A DNA stretch of 14,857 nucleotides, from positions 1-14,857 of the forward strand of contig JAFCCL010000016.1 in NCBI GenBank assembly GCA_017610205.1, written 5' to 3'. The stretch is from Candidatus Iainarchaeum sp. (GTDB lineage: Archaea; Iainarchaeota; Iainarchaeia; Iainarchaeales; GCA-2688035). Below are positions 303 to 14,857 of this stretch, one piece after another. A program made the position numbers and the translations under genes. A model generated the notes under the pieces. It did no database searches. It worked only from the letters and a program-made list of their open reading frames with translations, and was not told the origin of the DNA. Position 1 is the first letter of the stretch. Every line of letters begins with the position of its first letter.

Positions 303-1226
303 TTAAAGCCCGCTTGCAACAAAGTAGGTGAAAAGAGAGCAGGGGAGGAGAATTGCTGCGTACAATACTGCCTTTTTGCTGTTGCCCTCCTGGTTTGCAA
401 TAAAAAAAGAGGCAATAATTGCGTATTCCGCGATATAAATCTTGTTTGCAAGAAGCACTGCTTCCAAAGCAGCCTGCCTTGCTCCTTCGCCCTGTCCAAT
501 TCCAAGCAATGAAAATGCCTCTAAATCAAAGCCGCTTACAAGTCCTGCAATAAGGCCAAGGACTGCCGGAACAATAAGGCCCCCTGCAAACAGCAAAGTG
601 TATTTTTCAATTACAAGCGAGGCATTTCTCTCCAAAAGAATTGCGTTTGTTTCAAGAATATCTGAAGCTGCTTCCCTAAATACTTTTCCCATGTCTGCAC
701 CTGTTTCATAGCCCTGTAAAAGCAATGCAACAGCTCTTGAAATTATCTGGCTTTTGTTTCTTTTGGCAAGCTCTTCAAGTGCCCTTTTTACGCTTGAGCC
801 CTTTTCAATTCCTGCAATTGCAGTTTCAAATTCTTTTGACAAAAGGCCAAAGTCCTGTTTTGAAATATATGAAAGAATTTTTGTTATCTCTGTTCCTTTT
901 GGAAAAATGCTTGCCTGCAGCAAGGCGTCTGGAACAAGCAATTCTTTTTTTCTCTTCCTCCATTCGAAAATGTATTGTTGAATGAAGTAGTTGAACATTG
1001 CTGGGGCGAGAAAACATCCAACAGCAACAATTGTTATGTAGAAGATTTGCATGTTTGTTGTGTAGCTTATAGCTATTGATGCAATGCTTAATGCAAATCC
1101 TGCAATCACTGCCTGTTTTGCAAAACCTTGCCAGCTGCTGTTGTTCATTTCAAGGGTTTCGCCAAAGCTGTTTAATGAATTGCTGCTGAAGAAGTATGAA
1201 AGCAGGTTGTTTACGTTTTTTTCCAT
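303..1226 (-). CDS. Type II secretion system F family (TadC-like) pilus platform membrane protein
   Basis: 307 aa with two N-terminal TM helices, a T2SSF-like helical segment ([64 protein letters not shown]) and C-terminal TM helices. AGGAGG at 1236-1241 (minus strand) lies just upstream of the ATG. It is in an operon with a secretion ATPase. Confidence 0.85.
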
Positions 1227-1229
1227 TTT

Positions 1230-1277
1230 TTATTGCCTCCTTAGAAAAGCAAGTTGGTTGTTGGAATGTTTTTCCAT
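1230..1277 (-). other. 15-codon mini-ORF (MEKHSNNQLAFLRRQ*) arising from duplication of the gene junction
   Basis: ATG at 1277 and TAA at 1232-1230. The start resembles the downstream gene start (MEKNVNN) and the end resembles the upstream gene end (VFLRGQ*). Translation is not demonstrated. Confidence 0.45.
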
Positions 1278-1279
1278 TT

Positions 1280-2038
1280 TTATTGCCCTCTGAGAAAAAC
1301 AGGTGTTTTGCCTTTTATGTAAAAGAGTACTGCAAGATCCAGTATTGGAAAGCCAACTGCAATTATCAGGAAAAGCTGGCTTGCTGTAAAATTCATGTGC
1401 AGTATTGCTGAGCCAACTATTGAAAAGCTTTGGAATAATGCCGGTACAATTGCTGAAACTGCTATAAATAAGAGGCTTAGCACTACGAGTTTTCCTGAGA
1501 ACAGTTTGCTTTCAACTTTTTGCCTTGTTAGAATTTCTAAGGCAATTTTTTTAACCGGCTCTTCGCTTCCTTTGCTTCCTTGTTCAAATGCTGCTGCAAG
1601 CTGTATTGCTGCTCTTTTTACAAGCCTGCTTTCAATTCTTTCTGAAAAATGTCTTAGTGCATCCTGCATGCTTGCGCCTTGTTCTTTTACTTCTTTTGCC
1701 ACTATGTTGAATTCGATTGCACTGCAATTGCTTGCTTTTGATGCGTGCTCTATTGTTTTTAGGAAGGGCACTCCCAATTCCAGTTCTATTGCAATGTTCA
1801 TTAAGGTAAATGGAATGCTTGCCTCTACAAGTCCTGCGTATTGTTTTCTTTTCATTTTTGGGTAATAATGCAGGGCTGCAAATGCCGGAAAAAAGCAGGC
1901 AATTGCAAGAGTTGCTCCCAACAGCATATTGTTCAAGTAAAGGCCTAGGGCAAGCCAGCATGCTATTGAAAAAACAATTGCCTGCCTTGCGTAATTTCTT
2001 GTTTTTGTATCAATTTTTGTAATTGAATTAAATTTCAA
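1280..2038 (-). CDS. Type II secretion system F family (TadB-like) membrane protein
   Basis: 252 aa with two N-terminal TMs, a T2SSF-like segment (IPFTLMNIAIELELGVPFLKTIE...EFNIVAKEVKEQGASMQDALRHFSERIESRLVKRA) and C-terminal TMs. It lies between the ATPase and the second F-family gene. The TTG start is uncertain. Confidence 0.85.
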   Translation of the reverse strand: MKFNSITKIDTKTRNYARQAIVFSIACWLALGLYLNNMLLGATLAIACFFPAFAALHYYPKMKRKQYAGLVEASIPFTLMNIAIELELGVPFLKTIEHASKASNCSAIEFNIVAKEVKEQGASMQDALRHFSERIESRLVKRAAIQLAAAFEQGSKGSEEPVKKIALEILTRQKVESKLFSGKLVVLSLLFIAVSAIVPALFQSFSIVGSAILHMNFTASQLFLIIAVGFPILDLAVLFYIKGKTPVFLRGQ

Positions 2039-2105
2039 AATTTGTTCGCCTTTTCATTTTTTTTTCATTGTTCTTTTTTTCCATTTTTTTCCAATTGTTT
2101 GTTGT

Positions 2106-3614
2106 TCAAATTTTGTTCACTTTTTCAAAAAATTCTTTCATTTTAATTTTGCTGCATTGCATTCCTGCAAGAATTCCTGCTCTGCGTTCAATTTCTTTTT
2201 CAAATCCTTTTCTGCCAAAGCAAAATCCCTGTTTTGCCTTTTCAAATACCTTTACACTCTTGCCTTTTCTTACAAGTTTTCTCTTATCATAATCAAATTT
2301 AAACAAGGTATTGCATTCAACTTTCCTGTTTTTTTCACATAGTTCGGCAACCTCTACAATGTGCCTTACTTCTCTGTTGCCTTTTTGGTCAATTGAATCC
2401 TTTTTTTCCATAACATTCCATCTTCTTTGTACAAGTACCAGGTCTATTGCTGCAAGGTCTATTTCAAGCACTCCAAGTGACCGCATTCTGTTTAAGGTTT
2501 CTTTAATGCTTTGTCCGTGGAATGTTGCATAAGAGCCTTTGCCTTGTCCTGCAAGCAGTGTGTCAATAAAGGCTGAAACTTCTTCCCTGCTTCTTACTTC
2601 TCCTATGATTATTCTGTCAGGTCTCATTCTGAGGCTTTCAACAATGAGGTTTTGCATTCCGACAGATTGTTCTTTTACTACGTTGAGTTTTACAAAATGT
2701 TTGTGCTGCACTCTTATTTCTGGAGTTTCTTCTACAACAATAATTCTTTCATTTTTTGGAACAAATGAAAGCAATGCATTCAAACTGCTTGTTTTTCCTG
2801 AACCTGTGTTGCCTGCAATTAGGATAGAGCAATCGCATTGCATTGCAATCCACAAAAATGCCATTAGTTCGTGTGAAAATGTTTTGTTTTCCAAAAGTTG
2901 TGTTGGTGTAAATGGCTCTTGTCTGAATTTTCTTATTGTAAGGCTTGGCCCTGAAAAAGAAACCGGGCTTAGGACTGCGCTAAGTCTGTTGCCATCTGGG
3001 AGTGTGGCATTTAGCACAGGGCTGTTCATTGAAAGCCGTCTTCCAACAGGTCTTGCCATTTTGTTTACTATGTCTGTTACTGCCTGCCTGTTGTTAAAAA
3101 ATACATTGCTTGCCATCCAACCGTGTCTTGTGTGAAAAATGTACAATGGCTTGCTTTTTCCTGTTCCAACAACTGCAATCTCTTCAATTTCTTCATCTTT
3201 TAAGAAGAAATCAAATGGCCCAAAGCCAAAAAGATTGCTTTCAAGGGCAAGAAAAAGATATGTTGCTTGTTTTTTTTCAAGCAAAATAAGGTTTTGTGTG
3301 CAGTATTTTTTGAAAAATTTTTTCAAATCTTTTTTTCCTGCTTTTCCTTCCTTTTTCTGGAAAAGCCTTGCAACAGATGCCAAAAGAACTTCTTCCTCTG
3401 CAGTAAATTTGGGAAATTCGTTAATACAATACCTTTTTTCATTGCCTTGCAACTGGCTTTGCACTGGAAGGATATTCCAGCCAATCCCTTCCTCGTTCTC
3501 TTCGTTGTCTTCCTCGTCTTCTTCGCATTTTCTTTTCAATTCTATTTGTTTACGTTTGTCTTCCTCGTCTTCTTTGCTTTTTCTTTCTTCAGCAAAATCG
3601 GTTTCCAAAGACAT
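2106..3614 (-). CDS. Type II/IV secretion system ATPase (CpaF/TadA/VirB11 family)
   Basis: Walker A GNTGSGKTS, Asp box VVEETPEI, Walker B LRMRPDRIIIGEVR, His box ATFHG, plus LPDGNRL...LTIRKF. Start placed at ATG 3614 (MSLETD) rather than TTG 3656, because a TATA-like element abuts 3656 and GGAAGTG precedes 3614. Confidence 0.93.
   Translation of the reverse strand: MSLETDFAEERKSKEDEEDKRKQIELKRKCEEDEEDNEENEEGIGWNILPVQSQLQGNEKRYCINEFPKFTAEEEVLLASVARLFQKKEGKAGKKDLKKFFKKYCTQNLILLEKKQATYLFLALESNLFGFGPFDFFLKDEEIEEIAVVGTGKSKPLYIFHTRHGWMASNVFFNNRQAVTDIVNKMARPVGRRLSMNSPVLNATLPDGNRLSAVLSPVSFSGPSLTIRKFRQEPFTPTQLLENKTFSHELMAFLWIAMQCDCSILIAGNTGSGKTSSLNALLSFVPKNERIIVVEETPEIRVQHKHFVKLNVVKEQSVGMQNLIVESLRMRPDRIIIGEVRSREEVSAFIDTLLAGQGKGSYATFHGQSIKETLNRMRSLGVLEIDLAAIDLVLVQRRWNVMEKKDSIDQKGNREVRHIVEVAELCEKNRKVECNTLFKFDYDKRKLVRKGKSVKVFEKAKQGFCFGRKGFEKEIERRAGILAGMQCSKIKMKEFFEKVNKI
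3505..3586. repeat. In-frame 51-nt-spaced duplication in the acidic N-terminus of the ATPase
   Basis: TTGTCTTCCTCGTCTTCTT occurs at 3505 and 3556, encoding RKCEEDEEDN and RKSKEDEEDK. Confidence 0.75.
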
Positions 3615-3656
3615 TTTTCTTTTACACTTCCAATGAAGGAAATGCCTTGGTTGCAA

Positions 3657-3670
3657 TTTAAACCTTTTGC
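3657..3670 (-). promoter_or_regulatory. Putative BRE/TATA promoter of the pilus operon
   Basis: Minus strand GCAAAAGG-TTTAAA about 45 nt upstream of ATG 3614, with the same architecture as the element at 7564-7580. Confidence 0.55.
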
Positions 3671-3750
3671 AGTTTTCGACAATTAACTAAGGGTCTTGTA
3701 ATGCTGGTGCTTGGTTTTTTTGCTTACTTGCTGGCTAAGCCTGTGTTAAT

Positions 3751-3780
3751 TAAAAAAAAGAAAAAGGGTTGGGAAAAAGG
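3751..3780 (-). terminator. Putative archaeal oligo-U terminator
   Basis: The minus strand immediately after the stop at 3783 is a pyrimidine tract with T runs of 5, 5 and 8. Confidence 0.55.
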
Positions 3781-3782
3781 CG

Positions 3783-6700
3783 TTACTTGCCTTTTCCCTT
3801 TGTTTTCATGTAATATGCTGCTGCACCAATTACTACCAGGATTATTATTATTATTGCAACTATTGGCAGTGTATAATCTACTGGTGGCTCTGGAGGTATT
3901 GGTGGTTCAGGTGGTGTAGTTGCTTTTTCAACACATGCGCCTGACTGGCACCATTTGTTGTCACCACAGCTTATTCCATCCTCGTAGTATTCGTAGTCGC
4001 ATATTCCTGTTGCAGGATTGCATTCGCCTGTTGCACAGATTTGTATTTCGCATGTTACTCCATCGCAAGGGGCTACCTCTGTGTATGCTGTTACCATTCC
4101 TAGTGGAAGCAGTCTTGCTGTAACATCGGAAATGCTTTTGTCTGTTGTGTACCTGATTTCCGCTGTTCCGCCAACCTGTATTTCTGGGATGATGAATTCA
4201 ATTATTGGGTCTGCTTTTAGTACTGTCATTGAATATTCGCTGTTTATTTGTGAAGCGTTTGATGCAATTCCTTTTGGAATTTCTGCAATTACTTTTACAT
4301 TTCTCCACTTTTTGTCTGAGGTATTATGCACCTTTATTGAAATCCAGGTTTGGTATGTTGAGCCTGTTTCGGTTGTTATTTTGTCAACTGCAACTGTCTG
4401 GTCTATTGCCGTATTCTCTGCAACTATTGTTGCTGTTGCAATTTCTTCTGTTGTGAATCCTGCTTCTTCAAGCGTGCTTGTTATGTCTTCTACTGCCGGG
4501 GTTCCCTGAATTTCCACTATCAAAATTGTTTCAGTTCCTTCAACTGGTGCTGGTGGAAGTCCTGGGCCAGTTGGACTGCCACCTCCTGGGATAACATTGC
4601 CGCTTGTTGGAGGTTTTAGTGTTACTGTGATTGTACTGTTTATATCACTGATGTTTCCTGCATAATCAAGGCATCCGCCTGTCCATATTTGTGTTTCTTC
4701 CTTTGATGAACTTGCACGTAGTGTAATTGTATCAGTGGCATTAGTGGTCCATTCACTTGCTGTGTTTTGTTTGAACAGGTATCCTTCTATATTTGAGGCA
4801 ACATTGTCGTCACAGTAGAGAGTTAAATTATAGCTACTGCTTTTTACTGTTGTAGCCGAATTCCCATAGTTTGTTCCGAATCTTGCTCTTGGAACATTGC
4901 TGTCGTTTACTGTAAAATTCAGCGTGCTACTGTTTATGTCCCATAATTCGTTTACATCAACTGTTTCTGCAAACCATTTATTTCCGTTTCCTTTTCCCAT
5001 TCCGAATGTTTTTTTTGTAGTGTTTAGTATGCGAACATCGAGGTAGTATTTCCCTTCCTGTACAAAGTTGGTATCAAATTGTGCATTGCAATTGTAGTCC
5101 AGCCATGGATCGCTGCGAGGCGGTTCTGTGCATTCTATTTTCATTGGAGCTGCTTCGCCTGGAAGTACAGCTGCCCAGAGGCCATTGTCTTGTAGTTCAA
5201 AATTTTGGTCCCATTGGTTTGTGTCCTTTCCTTGTCCTGAACCATATGCTATATTAAGGTCGTTTGTCAGTCCTCCTTGATACTCACTCAAGAAAAAGTG
5301 GATATTGTAGTCTGCCAGCGTGAAATTATTGTCTACGTTTGTATCAGGCAGATATATGTTGAAATCTATTACATAGTTTATGTCAAGACTTGCTGGGCCA
5401 TATTTATTTGCCAAAGTATATCCCTGTATCTGGAAATGATCTGCGGCGTTCAAGTTTGTGTCTGTTATTTCAATCAATGGAGGATTGAAGAAGACGTTTG
5501 CGTCACTTGAATCAAGAACAGACTGGTTTATGTCAGTTCTTTGAACTGTAAGATTGACATCAACTAAAAACTCTCCTGTTACGAAATTCAAATCATTTCT
5601 TGTCATGTCATAGACACAGGTTATCCAATCTGTTCTTGCCATATTCAAGTCATCATCCACTGTGCTTTCAAAGTAGCCGAATGTATCCCATTCATTGCAC
5701 CTTATTCCATTGGTGTCAAACAGGTTTGTATCATTGATAATCAAGCCTGTTCCTGCGCCTGAAACTGTTGAAAAGTACAGTTCGGCAACCATTGGTATTG
5801 CACCTGCTGCTGCAATATTGTTGTCCATTGTGTTCAGGTCTTTGAATTTGAAGCTTATTGTGTAATTTGAGTCGGAACCATTTCTTGGCTTTCTTATTTT
5901 TTCTCCGCCGTTAGGTGCCAGCATTTGGATTGTCAGCGGGCTTGCTTCATAGTTTGAAAATTCTGTTACTTTAAAAGAAAGATTTCCGTCGCCTACATCG
6001 CTGTTATAATCCCACGTAGTAGAGTTTTCTGAAAGCGTTGTTCCGTCAAGGTTTGTGCATATGCTTGAACTGCATGGCTGTCCGTCTTTGAGAACAAATG
6101 GAATCCATGCCTTTTCCATTTTTACATTGTACATAAATATGTTTGCGTCTTCTCTTGCAAATTCAGGCAGGTTTGTGGAATTTATGCTTACATAACCTGA
6201 CCTTCCGTTCATGTCTGTTGAATAATCTGCAACAGGTGTTTCCTTAAGGTTTACACCTGTATTGAACTTTACTTCAATTTCCCTTGTTCCAATATCATCA
6301 ATAGCTGTTCCCATTCTTACAATTAAGTTGCTGACTGCGTTGAAGTCTGTGAAAAGGCGGCTGAACATTGCTGTGTTAAGGTCGTATGTGTTATTGCTGA
6401 TTGTAACTGTTACATTCATGTCTACAGGCGCTGTTGTGATTTTTGGTGCTATGACAAAGACTGCATTCACATCTTTGTTTACTGATGAATATGCCCTTAA
6501 TGTATTTAGGTCTGACCTTCCAATAGTGCTTCCTGCTGAGTTGCTTACATATGGAATGGTGAGGTTTACGTCAAATTCACCGTTTTCGTCTGCCCAAATT
6601 TTGATTCCGTTCCAATCGCCTGCTAAAACATTCACATCTGCAGCGTCAATTACCATACTATTTGTGTCCAAGTCTGTACTTGCCCTATGAAATACCCCAA

Positions 6701-7487
6701 GTAATGGAACCGACTTTCCTCCAAAAGCGTAAGACTTTGAGAAATTCATATCGTTTTGGTATTTCAAAAATGCTGAGCTAAGCCTCTCACCGTTTGCATC
6801 GTAAATGCTTATTTGCACGTTGTTATCTGAATTATCACGTCCTGATGCAAACCCAAATCCAAAAATTGTAATGTTTTGGTCAATTGCTGCCACTATATTA
6901 CTGGTATTTGGAGTGTATACAAGTATCGCCGGTCCAATGATAAAGTTTCCGTCTGCAACTTTTGCTGCACCACATTTTGAAGCGTTATTTCCATTATTTA
7001 TAAGTGGCCATATTTCCACCATGACTTCGTGCCCAACAAGGTGGTTTATTTGACCTGTTGATGGAACTGTAACAGATACATTAAAAGTGTTCAAATCATT
7101 CCCTACTCCGGCTATAAAAGATAAAACATTCACATCTCCTGCACTGGCACAAGGGCCTTCTCCGCTTAAATTTCTTGTGACAACATTTGCATCAATTACT
7201 CCATCTGAATTGAAACTTGCAGTTGAACCCTGTGAGGTTGATGCTAACACTTTTACATTCAAATCCACATAAATTCCACCATAGTTTAGTGCAATAAGGT
7301 AATTGAAATCACTGTTTATATCTGTGGCAAATGCTTCTGGTAATAAAACATTAAAGTCTTCTCCTTTGTTTGCATGCCTTGAATTGTTTACGTCCCAAGC
7401 ATTCAAATCTTGAAAAATTGCGTTTGCGCTTGACATTATAAATATTAAAAGTGTCGAGAGCACTAAGAGTTTCATTAATTTATTCAT
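3783..7487 (-). CDS. Large secreted, C-terminally membrane-anchored surface (S-layer-like) protein
   Basis: 1234 aa. Sec signal peptide (MNKLMKLLVLSTLLIFIMSSANA), about 950 aa of beta-rich D/N/T/S-rich body with Ig-like hallmarks (LAPNGGE, CLDYAGN), a Pro/Gly linker and a further globular domain. These are followed by an 8-Cys module (CDGVTC...CQSGAC), a Pro-rich stalk, a TM helix (IVAIIIIILVVIGAAAYY) and a basic tail. The gene has a strong SD and its own promoter. The S-layer role is inference. Confidence 0.85.
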   Translation of the reverse strand: MNKLMKLLVLSTLLIFIMSSANAIFQDLNAWDVNNSRHANKGEDFNVLLPEAFATDINSDFNYLIALNYGGIYVDLNVKVLASTSQGSTASFNSDGVIDANVVTRNLSGEGPCASAGDVNVLSFIAGVGNDLNTFNVSVTVPSTGQINHLVGHEVMVEIWPLINNGNNASKCGAAKVADGNFIIGPAILVYTPNTSNIVAAIDQNITIFGFGFASGRDNSDNNVQISIYDANGERLSSAFLKYQNDMNFSKSYAFGGKSVPLLGVFHRASTDLDTNSMVIDAADVNVLAGDWNGIKIWADENGEFDVNLTIPYVSNSAGSTIGRSDLNTLRAYSSVNKDVNAVFVIAPKITTAPVDMNVTVTISNNTYDLNTAMFSRLFTDFNAVSNLIVRMGTAIDDIGTREIEVKFNTGVNLKETPVADYSTDMNGRSGYVSINSTNLPEFAREDANIFMYNVKMEKAWIPFVLKDGQPCSSSICTNLDGTTLSENSTTWDYNSDVGDGNLSFKVTEFSNYEASPLTIQMLAPNGGEKIRKPRNGSDSNYTISFKFKDLNTMDNNIAAAGAIPMVAELYFSTVSGAGTGLIINDTNLFDTNGIRCNEWDTFGYFESTVDDDLNMARTDWITCVYDMTRNDLNFVTGEFLVDVNLTVQRTDINQSVLDSSDANVFFNPPLIEITDTNLNAADHFQIQGYTLANKYGPASLDINYVIDFNIYLPDTNVDNNFTLADYNIHFFLSEYQGGLTNDLNIAYGSGQGKDTNQWDQNFELQDNGLWAAVLPGEAAPMKIECTEPPRSDPWLDYNCNAQFDTNFVQEGKYYLDVRILNTTKKTFGMGKGNGNKWFAETVDVNELWDINSSTLNFTVNDSNVPRARFGTNYGNSATTVKSSSYNLTLYCDDNVASNIEGYLFKQNTASEWTTNATDTITLRASSSKEETQIWTGGCLDYAGNISDINSTITVTLKPPTSGNVIPGGGSPTGPGLPPAPVEGTETILIVEIQGTPAVEDITSTLEEAGFTTEEIATATIVAENTAIDQTVAVDKITTETGSTYQTWISIKVHNTSDKKWRNVKVIAEIPKGIASNASQINSEYSMTVLKADPIIEFIIPEIQVGGTAEIRYTTDKSISDVTARLLPLGMVTAYTEVAPCDGVTCEIQICATGECNPATGICDYEYYEDGISCGDNKWCQSGACVEKATTPPEPPIPPEPPVDYTLPIVAIIIIILVVIGAAAYYMKTKGKGK

Positions 7488-7599: not shown

Positions 7600-7755
7600 T
7601 CCCAATTTTTTGTAAAATTCTGGAAATTGAATTTTAATAGAATTTTTTGTTTTTCCAATTTTTTTTTTTGAAATTTTTATATTTTTTTTTTGTTTTTTTT
7701 CCTTTTTTTTTTATTTTATTTTTTTTTGATTGTGTTGGTTTGTGGTTTTTTTTTA
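7600..7755. repeat. Low-complexity poly-T-rich spacer between divergent promoters
   Basis: Multiple T runs of 8-12 nt and very few C on the + strand. Confidence 0.8.
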
Positions 7756-7875: not shown

Positions 7876-7926
7876 ATATATATTAGAATGCAGGCAGGAT
7901 AGTTGAATTATATTGGAGTTGAATTA

Positions 7927-10629
7927 ATGCTTTGGCATAGTCTTGGTTTGGAGGATGTTTTTAAGCAGCTTGAGTCCGGGCGAAAGGGTCTTTCGTTTGG
8001 TTTGGCAAAGCAGAGGCTTAAGCAATTTGGTAAAAATGAAATAAGGCTTGAGAGGAAAATTTCTCCGCTGAAGATTTTTGCCGAGCAATTTAAGAGTGTT
8101 CTTGTTTTAGTGCTTTTGGCTGCGTCTTTTGTTTCCTTTGTTGTAAGCCTTTTTCCTGGTTATGAGGACAATTTAATCAATGCTATTCTAATTTTTGTGA
8201 TTGTTATTGCAAACGGGGTTTTTGGCTTTTTTCAGGAGTTTAAGGCTGAGAAGAGTTTGGAGGCTTTGAAGAAGATGAGTCCTAATAAGGCAATTGTGTT
8301 GCGTAATGGGCAGAAGCAGGTTGTTGATGCTGTTGAGCTTGTTCCTGGTGACGTGGTTTTTTTGGAGGCTGGTGAGCTTGTTCCTGCTGATGCGCGTGTT
8401 TTTCAGGCGAGGAATTTGCATTTGGATGAATCGCTTTTGACTGGTGAAAGCATGCCTGTTAGTAAGCGTACTAAGGTTTTGCCACAGCAGACAAATTTGG
8501 CAGAGCGCATTAACATGGTTTTCAAAAATAGTGTTGTTACAAGCGGAACAGGGCTTGCAATGGTAACTGAAACAGGTCTTAAGACCGAGGTTGGAAAGAT
8601 TGCTGAAAGCCTGCATGGTCCTGGTCAAAAGGCAACTCCGTTTCAGGTTGAGCTTGACAGGCTTGGGAAAAGAATTGGTTTTCTTGTTGTTATTGTTGTT
8701 GCTTTTGTTGCTTTGAATCAGTTGTTTTTTCTGAATGTTGACGGTTCTTTTGCAAACAGGCTTGTTATAGTTTTTTTGACTGCGGTTAGCCTTGCTGTTG
8801 CAGCTATTCCTGAGGGTTTGCCGGCGGTTGTTACCTGGAGTCTTGGTTTGGGAACGAGGCGGATGGCAAAAAATAATGCTTTGGTAAGAAAGCTTGCTTC
8901 TGTTGAGGGTTTGGGTGATGTTGATGTTATTTGCACTGATAAAACAGCAACTCTTACTGAGAACAGAATGACTGTTACCAGAATTTTTTCAAATGGAAAA
9001 ACTGTTAATGTTACCGGAACAGGCCATGATCTTGATGGAAATTTTTTGCTTGGTAAAATAAAAATTCCTGCTTCTGAGTTTGAGCCAATTTTAAGGGCTG
9101 GTGCTTTGTGCAATGATTCTGAGATTTCTTTTGATGAGGATAACAACAAGATTTTTGTAGGTGATCCAACTGAAATAGCGTTTCTTGTAAGTGCAAGGAA
9201 GGCTGGTTTTAGTGAGAAGAGGATTTTGCTTTCAATGCCACGAATTAATGAAATTCCATTTGAGTCTGAGAAAAAGAGAATGGTTACAGTGCATGATGCT
9301 GGGAACGGAAAGCAGGTTGTTTTTATGAAGGGCGCGCCTGAAATTGTGCTTGAGCATTGTTCAAAAATTTTGTTGCAGGGAAAAGAAGTTAAGTTGTGCA
9401 AAAAGAATGTTGATGAAATTCTTGAAAAAAACAAGTTTTTTGCTTCACAGGCTTTAAGGGTTCTTGGTTTTGCATACAAAAAGGAAAAGAAAGGCGGCAA
9501 AAAATTTGAGGAAGAACTTGTTTTTCTTGGATTGCAGGCAATGATTGACCCTCCGAGAAAAGAGGTAAAGGCAAGCATTTCAGAATGCAAGAGTGCTGGT
9601 ATAAGAGTTGTGATGCTAACAGGTGATAACATTGTTACTGCAAAGTCGATTGCTGAACAGCTTGGCATTAAGGGAAAGGCATTGGACGGAAACAAGGTTC
9701 ACAAGCTTACTGACGAGCAGCTTTCTTTTGCCGTTGAGGAAACAGGAATTTTTGCAAGGGTTTCTCCTGATGCAAAACTTCAAGTGCTTAAAGCATTGCA
9801 GGCAAATGGCCATGTGGTTGCAATGACTGGAGATGGTGTAAATGATGCGCCTGCATTGCATGCTGCTGATGTTGGGGTTTCAATGGGCTTGCGTGGAACC
9901 GATGTTGCAAGGGAGGCGTCTGATATAATTTTGCTTGACGACAATTTTAGCACAATTGTGCTTGCTGTAAAGGAAGGGCGTACTATTTTTGACAATATAA
10001 GAAAATTTGTAAATTATTTAATGACCTGCAATCTTGCAGAGGTTCTTGTGGTTTTTCTTCTTTCTTTTGGAGGCTTTATTGCCCTTTTTCCAGCCCAGCT
10101 TCTTTGGATTAATCTTTTAACAGACGGACCGCCGGCTCTTGCCATTGGAATTGACCCAGGCAATAAGGACATAATGAAACGAAAGCCAAAGAAAAAAAAT
10201 GAGGGCGTGATAAACAAAAGGCTTGCTTATTTGATTGCAGGAATTGGGGTTTGGATGACAATTCTTTTAATAGGAGTTTTCTTTATTGGATTTTCCTTTG
10301 GAGGAATTGTTCTTGCCCAAACAATGCTTTTCACAGGCTTTATCTTATACGAATTTGTCAGAATTGTAGTAATAAGGCAACAGGAGCATATTGGGCTTTT
10401 TGAAAACAAGTGGCTTGTTTACGCAGTTGGCTTTTCTTTGTTTTTACAATTACTGCTTTTGTACACGCCTTTAAGCAGCCTTTTTTCACTGGTTCAGCTT
10501 AGCTTGTTTCCAATCACACAGCTTGAAATATTCTTTTGGTCAGTACTCTTAGGCGGCGTGGCAATTGGCTGGATTGGGGCGTTTGTAATAACAAAGCTTG
10601 TTGTAAGTGCAACACCTACTCAAAACTGA
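7927..10629 (+). CDS. P-type cation-transporting ATPase, type IIA (SERCA-like Ca2+-ATPase)
   Basis: Motifs TGES, AIPEGL, CTDKTATLT (variant phosphorylation motif), KGAPE, DPPR, MLTGDN and TGDGVNDAPAL. M5 CNLAEV, M6 WINLLTDG and M8 LYE align by eye with SERCA Ca-ligands N768/E771, N796/T799/D800 and E908. Start set at ATG 7927 (GGAG at 7915-7918) rather than TTG 7903. Confidence 0.93.
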   Translation: MLWHSLGLEDVFKQLESGRKGLSFGLAKQRLKQFGKNEIRLERKISPLKIFAEQFKSVLVLVLLAASFVSFVVSLFPGYEDNLINAILIFVIVIANGVFGFFQEFKAEKSLEALKKMSPNKAIVLRNGQKQVVDAVELVPGDVVFLEAGELVPADARVFQARNLHLDESLLTGESMPVSKRTKVLPQQTNLAERINMVFKNSVVTSGTGLAMVTETGLKTEVGKIAESLHGPGQKATPFQVELDRLGKRIGFLVVIVVAFVALNQLFFLNVDGSFANRLVIVFLTAVSLAVAAIPEGLPAVVTWSLGLGTRRMAKNNALVRKLASVEGLGDVDVICTDKTATLTENRMTVTRIFSNGKTVNVTGTGHDLDGNFLLGKIKIPASEFEPILRAGALCNDSEISFDEDNNKIFVGDPTEIAFLVSARKAGFSEKRILLSMPRINEIPFESEKKRMVTVHDAGNGKQVVFMKGAPEIVLEHCSKILLQGKEVKLCKKNVDEILEKNKFFASQALRVLGFAYKKEKKGGKKFEEELVFLGLQAMIDPPRKEVKASISECKSAGIRVVMLTGDNIVTAKSIAEQLGIKGKALDGNKVHKLTDEQLSFAVEETGIFARVSPDAKLQVLKALQANGHVVAMTGDGVNDAPALHAADVGVSMGLRGTDVAREASDIILLDDNFSTIVLAVKEGRTIFDNIRKFVNYLMTCNLAEVLVVFLLSFGGFIALFPAQLLWINLLTDGPPALAIGIDPGNKDIMKRKPKKKNEGVINKRLAYLIAGIGVWMTILLIGVFFIGFSFGGIVLAQTMLFTGFILYEFVRIVVIRQQEHIGLFENKWLVYAVGFSLFLQLLLLYTPLSSLFSLVQLSLFPITQLEIFFWSVLLGGVAIGWIGAFVITKLVVSATPTQN

Positions 10630-12857: not shown

Positions 12858-14855
12858 TCATGATCCAAACACCATTGCAGTGCCGTTGTAGTCAAGGTAC
12901 ATCTCCCCAAACCATATTCTGTTTAAGTCTGGTTCTATTGACACACCATTGTCTGTTCCAGTTTGAGTTATGTTCAAATCTCCTTCTATTAAAGTGTTGC
13001 CCATTATGTTTACGTCTCCAATTACATCTAGTTTGTTTTGTGGAACTGCTGTCCCAATACCAACGTCCCCTGCTGTTGTCATTGTAAACATTGTGCCAGT
13101 TGTCAATGTATTATCAGCATTCCAAGCCATCTTAAATCTTTTTTCATTACTGTTATCTGTTCCCAAATTCCAATAACCAGCACCACTAACTCCAAGAGCA
13201 AGTACAGGGTCGCCTGCATTAGCCCCCCCAGTCATAATTCGTAATCGTGCATTTGACCCTACTTCTGTATTATCTAAGTTTTGAAGTGTTAAATAAACAC
13301 TACTTGTAGATGTATCAGAAACATGCAAAAGAGCTGTTTGGTTTGTTATTCCAATGCCTACTTTTCCATCTGCATTAACACTCAAAGCAGGATTTGGAGA
13401 ACCATCAGACGCACTCAACTCAGAATGCCTATGCAAAGCATCAGCCATAGAATCATCAGTAAGGCTATCCAAATCATAGGAAAATAGTGAAGCATACATT
13501 GAATTAAAATCAGCAGTAGTCATAAAATTAGAATCAACACCAATTGCATTATTGTCAATATCTGCTTCAGTTGGAATGTAATCAGATGTTGTAATTCCGG
13601 TCAAACCAGAACCATCTCCAAACAAAAAGTCAGCTTCAACCGTATAAGCATTTACATCCCAAGAACTAAAACCAAACAAGCCAGTGTTAATATCATAGTC
13701 TGCTCCTATGTATGGTACGAAGTTTGCGTTTGTGTCTGTTTTTCCGTAGTAGTGTGTGTTTAGGTCTGCTATTGTTGTGTAGGTTAGTCTGCTTGTGTTG
13801 TTTGTGTCGAAGATGCTTAGGTATTGTGAGTTGAAGTCGGTTGTTGTCATGTAGTTTGTGTCTATTGCTATTGCGTTGTTGTCTATGTCGGCTTCTGTTG
13901 GGATGTATCCTGTTGCTATTCCTGTTAGTTGGCTTCCGTCTCCGAAGTATGTTGCTGTTAGGCTGTTGATGTTTGCGTCTCCTAGTGCATTCAAGTCGTT
14001 TACTACTACTGAGTTATCGTTGAAGTTGTTTAGATCTTTTCCCAGTGTTATTGCTGTGTCTCCGAATGCTCTTGCGTTTCTTCCTATTGCTATTGATCCT
14101 GTTCCTTCTGCTGTTGAGTTTGTGTCTGCGTATCCTAGTACTACTGTTCCTGATCCTGTTGAGTTTATTGTTCCGCCGTTTGCGTATCCTGCGGCTATGC
14201 TTCCTGGTCCGCTTGCTACCATGTTTGTATCACTGTATCCTAGTGCTACTGCTCCGTCGCCTATTGCAAAGAATTTATATGTAAACCCGCAGCCTGGGTC
14301 GTAGCATCCATATCCAGCCGCAATTGATCCTGTTCCTGCTGAATTTGGATAGTAGCCAATTGCTACGCTTGCAGAAGAACCACTTGCTGCTCCACCACTG
14401 CCGAGTGAAACTGAGTATAGGCCACTTGCTATTGAACCACTGCCTGATGCCATGCTTCCCATCCCGCTTGCAGTGCCATTTAATGATAGGCTGTAATTTC
14501 CGCTTGCTACTGAATTAAGTCCGATTGCTGTGCTTTGGTCTCCTGATGCGGTTGTTCCTGAACCAAGTGCTATGCTTTGGTCTCCAGAAGCTGTTGTTGC
14601 GTTTCCTAGTGCTACTGCGTTTGTTCCACTTGCGTCTGTTGCTGCACTGCTTATGAATTTTGCTCCTTTTATGAAGTTTGTGGCGTTTATGTCGTATGCT
14701 TCTAAGTCATATGTTCCCAAGTCTGTGTCGTAGTTTGCTCCGATGTATGGTACGAAGTTTGCGTTGATATCTGTTTGGGTTGGTATTCCTGTTAATTTAG
14801 AACCGTCTCCGAAGTATGTTTCTGCTGTTATGCTTGTTGTGTTTAGGTCGTTTGT
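12858..14855 (-). CDS. Fibre/adhesin-like protein with YadA-head-like repeats and tail-fibre-type motifs (5' end outside the window)
   Basis: The frame stays open upstream of the TTG at 14720 to the window edge (TNDLNTTSITAETYFGDGSKLTGIPTQTDINANFVPYIGANYDTD-LGTYD...). It has about 14-aa repeats of type ASGxxSxAxG, three FGDGSxLTGI, two NANFVPYIGAxYD, two YIPTEADIDNNAI, GKVGIG/GDVGIGT motifs and an HRH motif. Confidence 0.85.
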   Translation of the reverse strand, partial: TNDLNTTSITAETYFGDGSKLTGIPTQTDINANFVPYIGANYDTDLGTYDLEAYDINATNFIKGAKFISSAATDASGTNAVALGNATTASGDQSIALGSGTTASGDQSTAIGLNSVASGNYSLSLNGTASGMGSMASGSGSIASGLYSVSLGSGGAASGSSASVAIGYYPNSAGTGSIAAGYGCYDPGCGFTYKFFAIGDGAVALGYSDTNMVASGPGSIAAGYANGGTINSTGSGTVVLGYADTNSTAEGTGSIAIGRNARAFGDTAITLGKDLNNFNDNSVVVNDLNALGDANINSLTATYFGDGSQLTGIATGYIPTEADIDNNAIAIDTNYMTTTDFNSQYLSIFDTNNTSRLTYTTIADLNTHYYGKTDTNANFVPYIGADYDINTGLFGFSSWDVNAYTVEADFLFGDGSGLTGITTSDYIPTEADIDNNAIGVDSNFMTTADFNSMYASLFSYDLDSLTDDSMADALHRHSELSASDGSPNPALSVNADGKVGIGITNQTALLHVSDTSTSSVYLTLQNLDNTEVGSNARLRIMTGGANAGDPVLALGVSGAGYWNLGTDNSNEKRFKMAWNADNTLTTGTMFTMTTAGDVGIGTAVPQNKLDVIGDVNIMGNTLIEGDLNITQTGTDNGVSIEPDLNRIWFGEMYLDYNGTAMVFGS

Positions 14856-14857
14856 TT

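Follow-up and report, generated by a model that had tools for sequence, protein, structure and literature searches.

An abrupt third-position step in a surface-fibre gene of a small archaeon and a genome-wide patchwork of strand-specific wobble tracts

Results

A wobble-base step at a module border of the fibre gene

The contig JAFCCL010000016.1 of Candidatus Iainarchaeum sp. (assembly GCA_017610205.1), analyzed over its full length of 14,857 nucleotides and called here the window, carries the 3′ part of a modular surface-fibre gene (12858–14855, minus strand; product P0001, 665 codons plus stop; identified from the list of open reading frames (ORFs) with their translations, Pfam, and a PDB match) in which the third codon positions change abruptly from A and C to T. 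Codons 1–386 (13698–14855, minus strand) form, by third-position counts, an A/C-wobble array (A213 C124 G10 T39), which extends back to about C8:5108 on C8, the contig that carries the upstream part of the gene. The array includes a relaxed sub-tract, codons 90–196 (14268–14588, minus strand), seen in sliding windows and wobble strings; it corresponds to the second half of the YadA-head-like repeats, and the homologous sub-region of the C8 copy is likewise relaxed. In codons 197–386 (A113 C68 G4 T5), A or C ends 181 of the 190 codons (95.3%), and at the genome A3+C3 frequency of 0.535 a count of at least 181/190 has P = 5e-38. The T/G-wobble tract that follows, codons 387–494 (13374–13697, minus strand), spans the last repeat module and its linker, with T70 G15 A14 C8 in codons 387–493. 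The C-terminal domain (12858–13373, minus strand), which starts at a GKVGIG motif at codon 497, has genome-typical wobble use (51% A/C; A66 C22 G24 T60 in codons 494–665). An initial annotation, made from the letters of this DNA, had claimed that opposite wobble bases are used within the gene, and the counts, 181/190 A/C followed by T in 70 of 107 codons, bear this out more strongly than had been claimed.

The same annotation had placed an abrupt switch near 13700. Third-position composition along the gene does change stepwise and not as a gradient: a two-state maximum-likelihood split is best made after codon 386 (13698|13697), where the log-likelihood rises by 93, and moving the border one codon toward the 3′ side costs more than 2.5 units. 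A second change point after codon 494 (~13374), beyond which wobble use is genome typical, makes the T-rich tract a short one bounded on both sides. We scored 30-codon windows as A/C when A3+C3 was at least 27 and as G/T when it was at most 3; under this genome-wide threshold codons 457–497 count as a G/T tract. Steps of this size are rare, since adjacent 30-codon windows differ by at least 23 at only 3 of 323,879 positions genome-wide and by at least 19 at six loci, the fibre gene included (30 vs 11). On C8, 88% of codons 198–697 end in A or C; the A/C regime begins at about C8 codon 202 and spans some 850 codons. The three compositional borders of the fibre gene are module borders: the end of the N-terminal domain (C8 codon ~202), the position after NANFVPYIGAD (codon 386), and the position before GKVGIG (codon 494).

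The opposite wobble use is best seen in two copies of one module. Copy A (YFGDGSQLTGI...YIPTEADIDNNAI...; 13764–13949, minus strand) is A/C-coded, with the codons TAC ATC CCA ACA GAA GCC GAC ATA GAC AAC AAC, and copy B (LFGDGSGLTGI...YIPTEADIDNNAI...; 13440–13625, minus strand) is T-coded, with ATT CCA ACT GAA GCA GAT ATT GAC AAT AAT; the codons first quoted for both copies proved correct on re-reading, as did the linker motifs, GDGSxLTGI at codons 16, 305, and 413 and NxNFVPY at codons 31 and 376. Aligned over 61 residues (13764–13949 vs 13440–13625), the copies share 40, of which 11 have the same wobble base and 25 have A or C in copy A and T in copy B (16 C→T, 9 A→T). The pressure exceeds codon choice, because the first codon positions shift the same way, with amino-to-keto differences of 15:1. 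The T-coded module finds its nearest counterpart within the gene itself, in the A/C-coded copy (58% identity, E 4.6e-18), a match in the relative G007 being weaker (40% identity, E 2.5e-6).

The step lies 10 nt from a 23-nt exact repeat coding for NANFVPYI (13708–13730), whose partner is found 1035 nt upstream (14743–14765). It is the longest repeated word near the step, and words spanning 13697/13698 do not exceed 12 nt. The longest direct repeats in the fibre gene measure 49–51 nt with 60–88% identity (the 49-nt repeat D7, 88%). From its sequence and position, the 23-nt linker repeat is a candidate crossover site.

The window is the entire contig C22 of a 24-contig, 1.37-Mb assembly with a G+C content of about 38% and an estimated completeness of 92%. 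The fibre ORF (12858–14855, minus strand) is open at its 5′ end and runs off the contig; the 5′ part of the gene is found at C8:4517–6608 as a 697-codon frame running into the C8 end. The last 99 nt of the window (14759–14857) are the exact reverse complement of the C8 3′ end (6510–6608), an exact suffix/prefix overlap, and the final 60 nt of C8 are present only in C8 and C22. The assembly broke inside a repeated fibre module, splitting the gene between C22 and C8, and the module count may therefore exceed the assembled count. Two fibre genes of different populations, joined by the assembler at the conserved linker, could also give a step, and the fragmentation into 24 contigs, the contig end within the same repeated module, and the 23-nt exact repeat beside the step would all be in keeping with such a chimera. 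Nevertheless, an end overlap of 99 nt points to an assembly that finished at a k near 99, which would require the reads to contain the words across the step; the neighbouring repeat is just 23 nt long and words over the step reach at most 12 nt; and comparable steps and tracts lie inside long syntenic contigs and in relatives. We consider a chimera the least probable of the explanations discussed here.

Wobble tracts across the genome and its relatives

Genes were called by a crude longest-ORF rule and not by a gene finder, which gave 1316 ORFs. Among 363,359 thirty-codon windows, 2621 were A/C and 414 G/T; merged, they form 107 A/C tracts in 70 genes and 14 G/T tracts in 12 genes (~120 tracts in ~80 genes). 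The tracts run over 30–350 codons, are saturated up to 30/30 codons, and are concentrated on small contigs and a few islands. The genes concerned include a second P-type ATPase, argininosuccinate synthase, a radical-SAM enzyme, RNase HII, eIF-6, an IS66 transposase, TraG- and PrgI-type genes, subtilases, and giant LamG-repeat proteins. Because some 120 comparable tracts thus lie in some 80 genes, housekeeping genes among them, the flip in the fibre gene reflects the way in which the DNA of the lineage changes and is not a speciality of that gene. Full-text literature searches with limited terms returned no description of tract-wise saturated wobble bias in archaea.

Two of the loci met in this survey deserve mention. 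In C20:15913–17133 (plus strand), codons ~230–390 have G at almost every wobble position, C and A filling some of the rest; this third type of extreme tract may be a low-complexity region. The argininosuccinate synthase gene (C15:17461–18645) is largely A/C-coded; a search of six congeners did not find it, and the best match, 72% identical, belongs to another genus (a locus in G014). This distribution suggests that the gene, which lies on a small contig, was acquired.

The genomes of relatives were sampled and not scanned entire, and related genomes are not independent; with these limits, tract windows were found in several of them, with 17 A/C and 17 G/T among 52,514 windows in G006, 3 and 3 among 54,523 in G020, 3 and 24 among 54,027 in G019, and 0 and 2 among 19,821 in G004. 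The 26 bacterial and viral loci, several of the viral ones near-duplicates, gave 0 A/C and 2 G/T windows among 87,491. By these counts the tracts are specific to the lineage and uncommon elsewhere. Fibre homologues follow the A/C regime in G001, G002, G004, and G005 and the G/T regime in G014 and part of G007; wobble use is ordinary in G003, a genome with 51 matches to the fibre family. In G007 a long open frame (C52 3–6689, minus strand) combines A/C tracts with a T-dominated tract in its fibre-homologous end, so that mixtures of tracts within one gene recur in the fibre family.

A programmed system for shuffling adhesin cassettes, its alternative modules kept elsewhere or inverted, would suit a modular architecture with conserved linkers, the many family paralogs in one relative (51 matches in G003), and the presence of both wobble regimes within the family. 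However, a tblastn search of P0001 against all 24 contigs, which answers the initial proposal of paralogous cassettes in the genome, matched only C22 itself and the upstream part on C8, that is, the two parts of this gene, and no second copy or silent cassette was found in the assembly. Recombinase families were absent from the nine window ORFs scanned (small ORFs were left unscanned), and the eight inverted repeats of the fibre gene (15–21 nt, 70–87% complementary) include none at the 13698 step. With the same tracts in unrelated genes as well, the cassette-shuffling adhesin family named in the initial annotation is not borne out, and we hold such a system to be highly improbable. No near-identical template/variable repeat pair of the kind used by diversity-generating retroelements occurs in the gene, a reverse transcriptase not having been searched for. 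A viral donor was also considered and rejected, as 19 IMG/VR loci with distant fibre relatives (28–42% identity) showed no A/C tract.

Tract genes are enriched in features connected with recombination and assembly breaks. Paralogs are found for 49 of 81 tract genes and 295 of 1235 other genes (odds ratio (OR) 4.9), and 25/81 vs 188/1235 lie within 5 kb of a contig end, gene length being a partial confounder.

A property of DNA strands

The A/C tracts are marked by characteristic synonymous choices: four-fold sites go to A, two-fold pyrimidine sites to C, and Leu to CTA (0.51 vs 0.08). In the G/T tracts the choices are complementary, with four-fold sites mostly T, and the amino-acid composition of the tracts shifts in the same direction as the wobble base. 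On these grounds we rejected saturation by transitions alone (G>A and T>C), since four-fold sites move mostly to A (T in the G/T tracts) and Leu to CTA.

Translational codon adaptation was likewise rejected. The ribosomal-protein cluster, EF-1alpha, and EF-2 have A/C3 values of 0.43–0.66, with C3 only ~0.08–0.2 and T3 plentiful, so that highly expressed genes lack this codon set, and tRNAs with C34, which serve G-ending codons, are present. Among the 37 tRNAs detected, position 34 is G, U, or C, never A, and 12 carry C34. The absence of an A34 tRNA, together with genes for eIF-6 and a TrmB-type regulator, identifies the organism as an archaeon.

The bias follows the DNA instead. Where non-coding DNA abuts a tract, 16 of 20 such flanks have the polarity of the tract. 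The genome also shows a regional skew that does not depend on gene orientation and changes sign along contigs: on C3, from 0 to 105 kb, G/T3 is 0.46–0.68 in plus-strand genes and 0.29–0.43 in minus-strand genes, and the relation is reversed beyond ~120 kb. Tract polarity matches this regional skew in 107 of the 137 tract runs scored, 6 further runs being unscorable, and A/C-tract genes lie on the regionally A/C-rich strand in 45/56 cases vs 577/1027 for genes overall (OR 3.4, p 1.4e-4). A coding-strand effect remains, with A/C tracts far outnumbering G/T tracts (107 vs 14). The wobble bias is a property of DNA strands and not of translation: a strand-specific bias is shown by these data to drive one DNA strand to T/G and the other to A/C, purifying selection confining the effect mostly to synonymous sites.

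Selection on synonymous sites, whether for unstructured A/C-rich mRNA, for translation speed, or for G/T-rich single strands in homologous pairing, has some of the evidence on its side: on the coding strand A/C tracts greatly outnumber G/T tracts, A/C-ending codons are the Watson–Crick partners of the G34 and U34 tRNAs present, the A/C state recurs in the fibre homologues of four other species of the genus, and the substitution pattern described below, forward up and reverse down with the protein unchanged, is the signature of a fixation bias. It is hard to reconcile with a codon set that highly expressed genes do not use, with tracts in transposase, RNase HII, and conjugation-type genes, with a bias that spills into the flanks (16/20) and follows the regional DNA strand, and with orthologous positions that differ between sister species; we assign it a small probability.

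A loss of repair could in principle set this genome (G000) apart. The Endonuclease V family was found in 0 of the 13 genomes of the order searched, G000 included, with a control detected in 7 of 14 named genomes, and UDG was detected in G000, G001, G002, G004, and G005. A repair-gene difference as the reason for the tract excess of G000 was rejected, the distribution of both enzymes failing to separate G000 from its relatives.

Change between sister species

The conserved P-type ATPase gene of the window (7903–10629) allows the history of a tract to be followed. It carries three G/T-wobble tracts, at codons 9–40, 97–193, and 245–288 (7927–8766, plus strand), and its orthologues in G002 (90% identical protein) and G004 (89%) have no strong tract at codons 97–193. 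Changes were assigned to the lineage that differs from the other two, among three taxa with no outgroup. In the tracts, the G000 lineage changed from A/C to G/T at 19 of 30 wobble sites and in the reverse direction at 1 of 80; outside them the values are 49/174 and 40/298. The forward rate is thus raised ~2.3-fold in the tracts and the reverse rate lowered ~10-fold. Between G002 and G000, codons 97–193 show A>G 16, A>T 8, and C>T 8, as opposed to T>C 2, T>G 3, and G>A 0. Protein identity to G002 is 0.91 in the tract vs 0.89 elsewhere. Import of a divergent segment into the ATPase gene is not supported, G002 staying closest at the protein level in the tract (identity 0.91, vs 0.80 to G003). With the forward rate up, the reverse rate down, and the protein unchanged, tract replacement or a fixation bias fits better than a plain hot spot.

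The G002 orthologue of uppS (C146 4130–4822) has an A/C-only tract of its own at about codons 108–135, which is missing from G000. With the strong ATPase tract lacking in G002 and G004 and the uppS tract present in G002 but not in G000, tracts arise or move within the time that separates sister species. The uppS gene of G000 is compositionally neutral, its directional difference from G002 stemming from the A/C tract of the latter. An inverted 3-kb block (10.65–13.7 kb) was considered and rejected, the order and orientation ATPase-orf94-uppS-DUF192 being conserved in G006 and G002.

Two further observations concern the ATPase gene. Very T-rich plus-strand runs occur at 7600–7745, in the intergenic DNA from which the 1234-codon ORF and the ATPase gene diverge, and the plus-strand G/T excess begins there, upstream of the ATPase start. 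The G004 orthologue (C17 1719–4375) is read in two overlapping frames, codons 7–330 and 338–908, which may be a frameshift or an assembly error.

These comparisons bear most directly on in-situ mutational hot patches, in which short stretches of one strand are repeatedly exposed or badly repaired, for instance as single-stranded DNA at stalled forks or R-loops subject to deamination of C and A, so that every tract, both fibre tracts included, would have formed in place with no need of recombination. The changes are indeed strongly directional and lineage specific (ATPase codons 97–193, the uppS tract of G002), most tracts have the polarity of the regional strand skew, first codon positions and non-coding flanks are affected as well, and Endonuclease V was found in none of the 13 genomes searched (control in 7 of 14 named genomes); the T-coded fibre module is, moreover, nearest to its A/C-coded neighbour, as expected of a tandem duplicate diverging in place. 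Yet a higher mutation rate should raise amino-acid change, and ATPase identity is 0.91 in the tract vs 0.89 in the rest; the ~10-fold lower reverse rate (1/80 vs 40/298) is not predicted by a forward hot spot; four-fold sites that go to A (to T on the opposite strand) call for more than simple deamination of C and A; a reversal of polarity over no more than one or two codons, and that exactly at a conserved linker, would not be expected; nor would the ratio of 107 A/C to 14 G/T tracts relative to the coding strand. We regard hot patches as unlikely, although they are the most credible of the rival explanations.

The fibre protein and its genomic neighbourhood

The joined C8+C22 product begins with a signal-like hydrophobic segment and an N-terminal domain, also found in relatives, followed by a long array of modules with linkers and a C-terminal domain. 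In the array, GDGSxLTGI and NxNFVPY linkers stand between the modules, and there are two blocks of YadA-head-like repeats. Pfam YadA_head (PF05658) matches four stretches, with E 2.9e-17 in P0001 and E 3.4e-18 in the C8 part; Chlorovi_GP_rpt scores 29 bits in P0001 against a cut-off of 27 bits, and the head of BpaC (PDB entry 7o23) matches P0001 with E 2e-10. Long public homologues are labelled by their sources as tail-fibre or endosialidase-like proteins. The C-terminal 172 residues match zero Pfam families at E<=5, and the relatives found for this domain are bacterial fibre-like proteins only (30–38% identity, with 47% over one 34-residue segment). By its domain composition, the gene is predicted to encode a long, modular, secreted, YadA-head-like fibre of a small archaeon, probably a cell-surface attachment protein.

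The likeness to trimeric autotransporter adhesins (YadA/BpaC) rests on the YadA_head repeats and the 7o23 match, and a repetitive fibrous build with conserved linkers is common to these adhesins, to bacterial tail fiber domain-containing proteins, and to the fibre. The fibre differs from YadA-type adhesins in its archaeal host and in having an N-terminal signal-like segment and N- and C-terminal domains of its own. The YadA membrane-anchor barrel was not found in P0001 (Pfam, E<=0.01) nor in the last 172 residues (E<=5), and the Peptidase_S74 (PF13884) chaperone domain, present in many long homologues, is undetected in P0001.

On the other side of the window, a cluster at 303–7487 (minus strand) comprises two T2SSF-like genes, one T2SSE-like ATPase, and the 1234-codon ORF, which has no Pfam family. 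It is syntenic in G002, G004, and G006, where the large ORF is merely 48–58% identical, and resembles an archaeal machine of the type IV pilus kind, with a partner that evolves fast. The A-poor strand opposite the A/C tracts is nearly stop-free and gives long spurious antisense ORFs, such as 13858–14304 (plus strand), a trap for gene callers.

Discussion

We favor, at somewhat short of an even chance, a lineage-wide strand-asymmetric substitution bias with tracts bounded by recombination at conserved linkers. Tracts that stay long in one polarity would become saturated. Homologous recombination or gene conversion at near-identical linker DNA would then bring together tracts of different history, and such joining would leave the sharp step at codons 386/387 beside the 23-nt repeat and, at the conserved motif that follows, the second border. 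The fibre gene would accordingly be a mosaic, as one instance of a genome-wide patchwork and not as a dedicated cassette system. Recombination at a conserved linker between differently biased DNA is the most economical account of this single step, and it is reasonable to see in the step beside the linker repeat, and in the borders that coincide with module borders, the trace expected of linker recombination. The original proposal, that modules from different loci or orientations were joined at linkers, stands in part: the step adjoins the 23-nt linker repeat and the wobble regimes vary in relatives, but no donor was found. The role it gave to orientation likewise survives as a bias tied to the DNA strand, though not one specific to adhesins.

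Several results weigh against this account. Of the tract runs, 27/123 A/C and 3/14 G/T oppose the regional skew, the fibre T tract among them. No donor was found, the T-coded module being closest to the A/C-coded copy of the same gene, and the 92%-complete assembly contains no other fibre paralogs. An exact 40-nt word across the linker had no match in metagenome contigs, and a protein-guided metagenome scan for the fibre gave no relative. The ATPase tract of G000 is closest to G002, so that an import must come from inside that small clade, and its edges are fuzzier than the fibre step. Finally, the ORF calls are crude longest-ORF calls, so that A/C tracts read in antisense may account for some of the G/T tracts.

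A recombination-linked, strand-specific fixation bias, that is, biased gene conversion favouring G/T on the invading strand, is a doubtful alternative to which we give about the same small weight as to synonymous selection. RecA is reported to prefer G/T-rich single strands (PMC3763553), and conversion favouring G/T would be plausible if the RadA of this lineage shared the preference, as we assume. Such a conversion would saturate the synonymous sites of genes prone to recombination in no more time than separates sister species, and would leave A/C-only or G/T-only tracts with a polarity following fork direction.

The preferred account of a strand-asymmetric bias cut by recombination has partial parallels in known systems. 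Replication-linked strand asymmetry produces GC and keto skew, and strand-dependent codon usage is known in spirochaetes. The dependence of the wobble base on the coding strand, and an orientation-independent regional skew that flips sign along C3, recall this phenomenon; the present bias differs in its saturation (30/30 codons), its 30–350-codon tracts, its intragenic flips, and its differences between sister species. In place of a smooth, moderate skew free of intragenic reversals, we found saturated tracts, steps within genes, and 30/137 runs that oppose the regional sign. In vertebrate mitochondrial genes, light-strand wobble positions are A/C-rich, with G nearly absent and T scarce, which is attributed to deamination of the single-stranded complement. 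The near-absence of G and the scarcity of T at coding-strand wobble positions are shared by our A/C tracts, whereas the mitochondrial effect is genome-wide and graded with single-stranded time, and here the tracts are short and sharp, of both polarities, and on a cellular chromosome.

Phage tail fibres form mosaics, and invertible C-terminal cassettes are known from Mu Gin, P1 Cin, and the R64 shufflon. The exchange of modules at linkers, and a distal part of the fibre whose history differs from that of the proximal part, are points of likeness; in contrast to these systems, no invertase, inverted cassette, or crossover-site repeats were found here. A hypervariable repeat gene of a Gracilibacterium is also comparable, as a repeat-rich gene for a probably extracellular protein that broke an assembly, in which GAC is used far above the genome level (6.2:6.7 vs 0.83:4.79); in the passages of that report available, it concerns one gene and one codon pair in 9-mer repeats, and these passages describe no strand- or genome-wide tract pattern (PMC6851277).

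If the account of strand-specific tracts is true, synonymous sites in this lineage are not neutral clocks, as one strand can reach saturation along stretches of a few hundred bases in the time that sister species take to diverge. Estimates of dS, detection of gene transfer from codon usage, and gene calling would all be distorted, the last because the A-poor strand of the tracts carries long spurious ORFs. The step in the fibre gene marks a module border in a probable surface attachment protein, the kind of gene expected to diversify, and the tracts would be a readable footprint of the strand involved in repair, replication, or recombination in these little-studied, probably host-dependent archaea.

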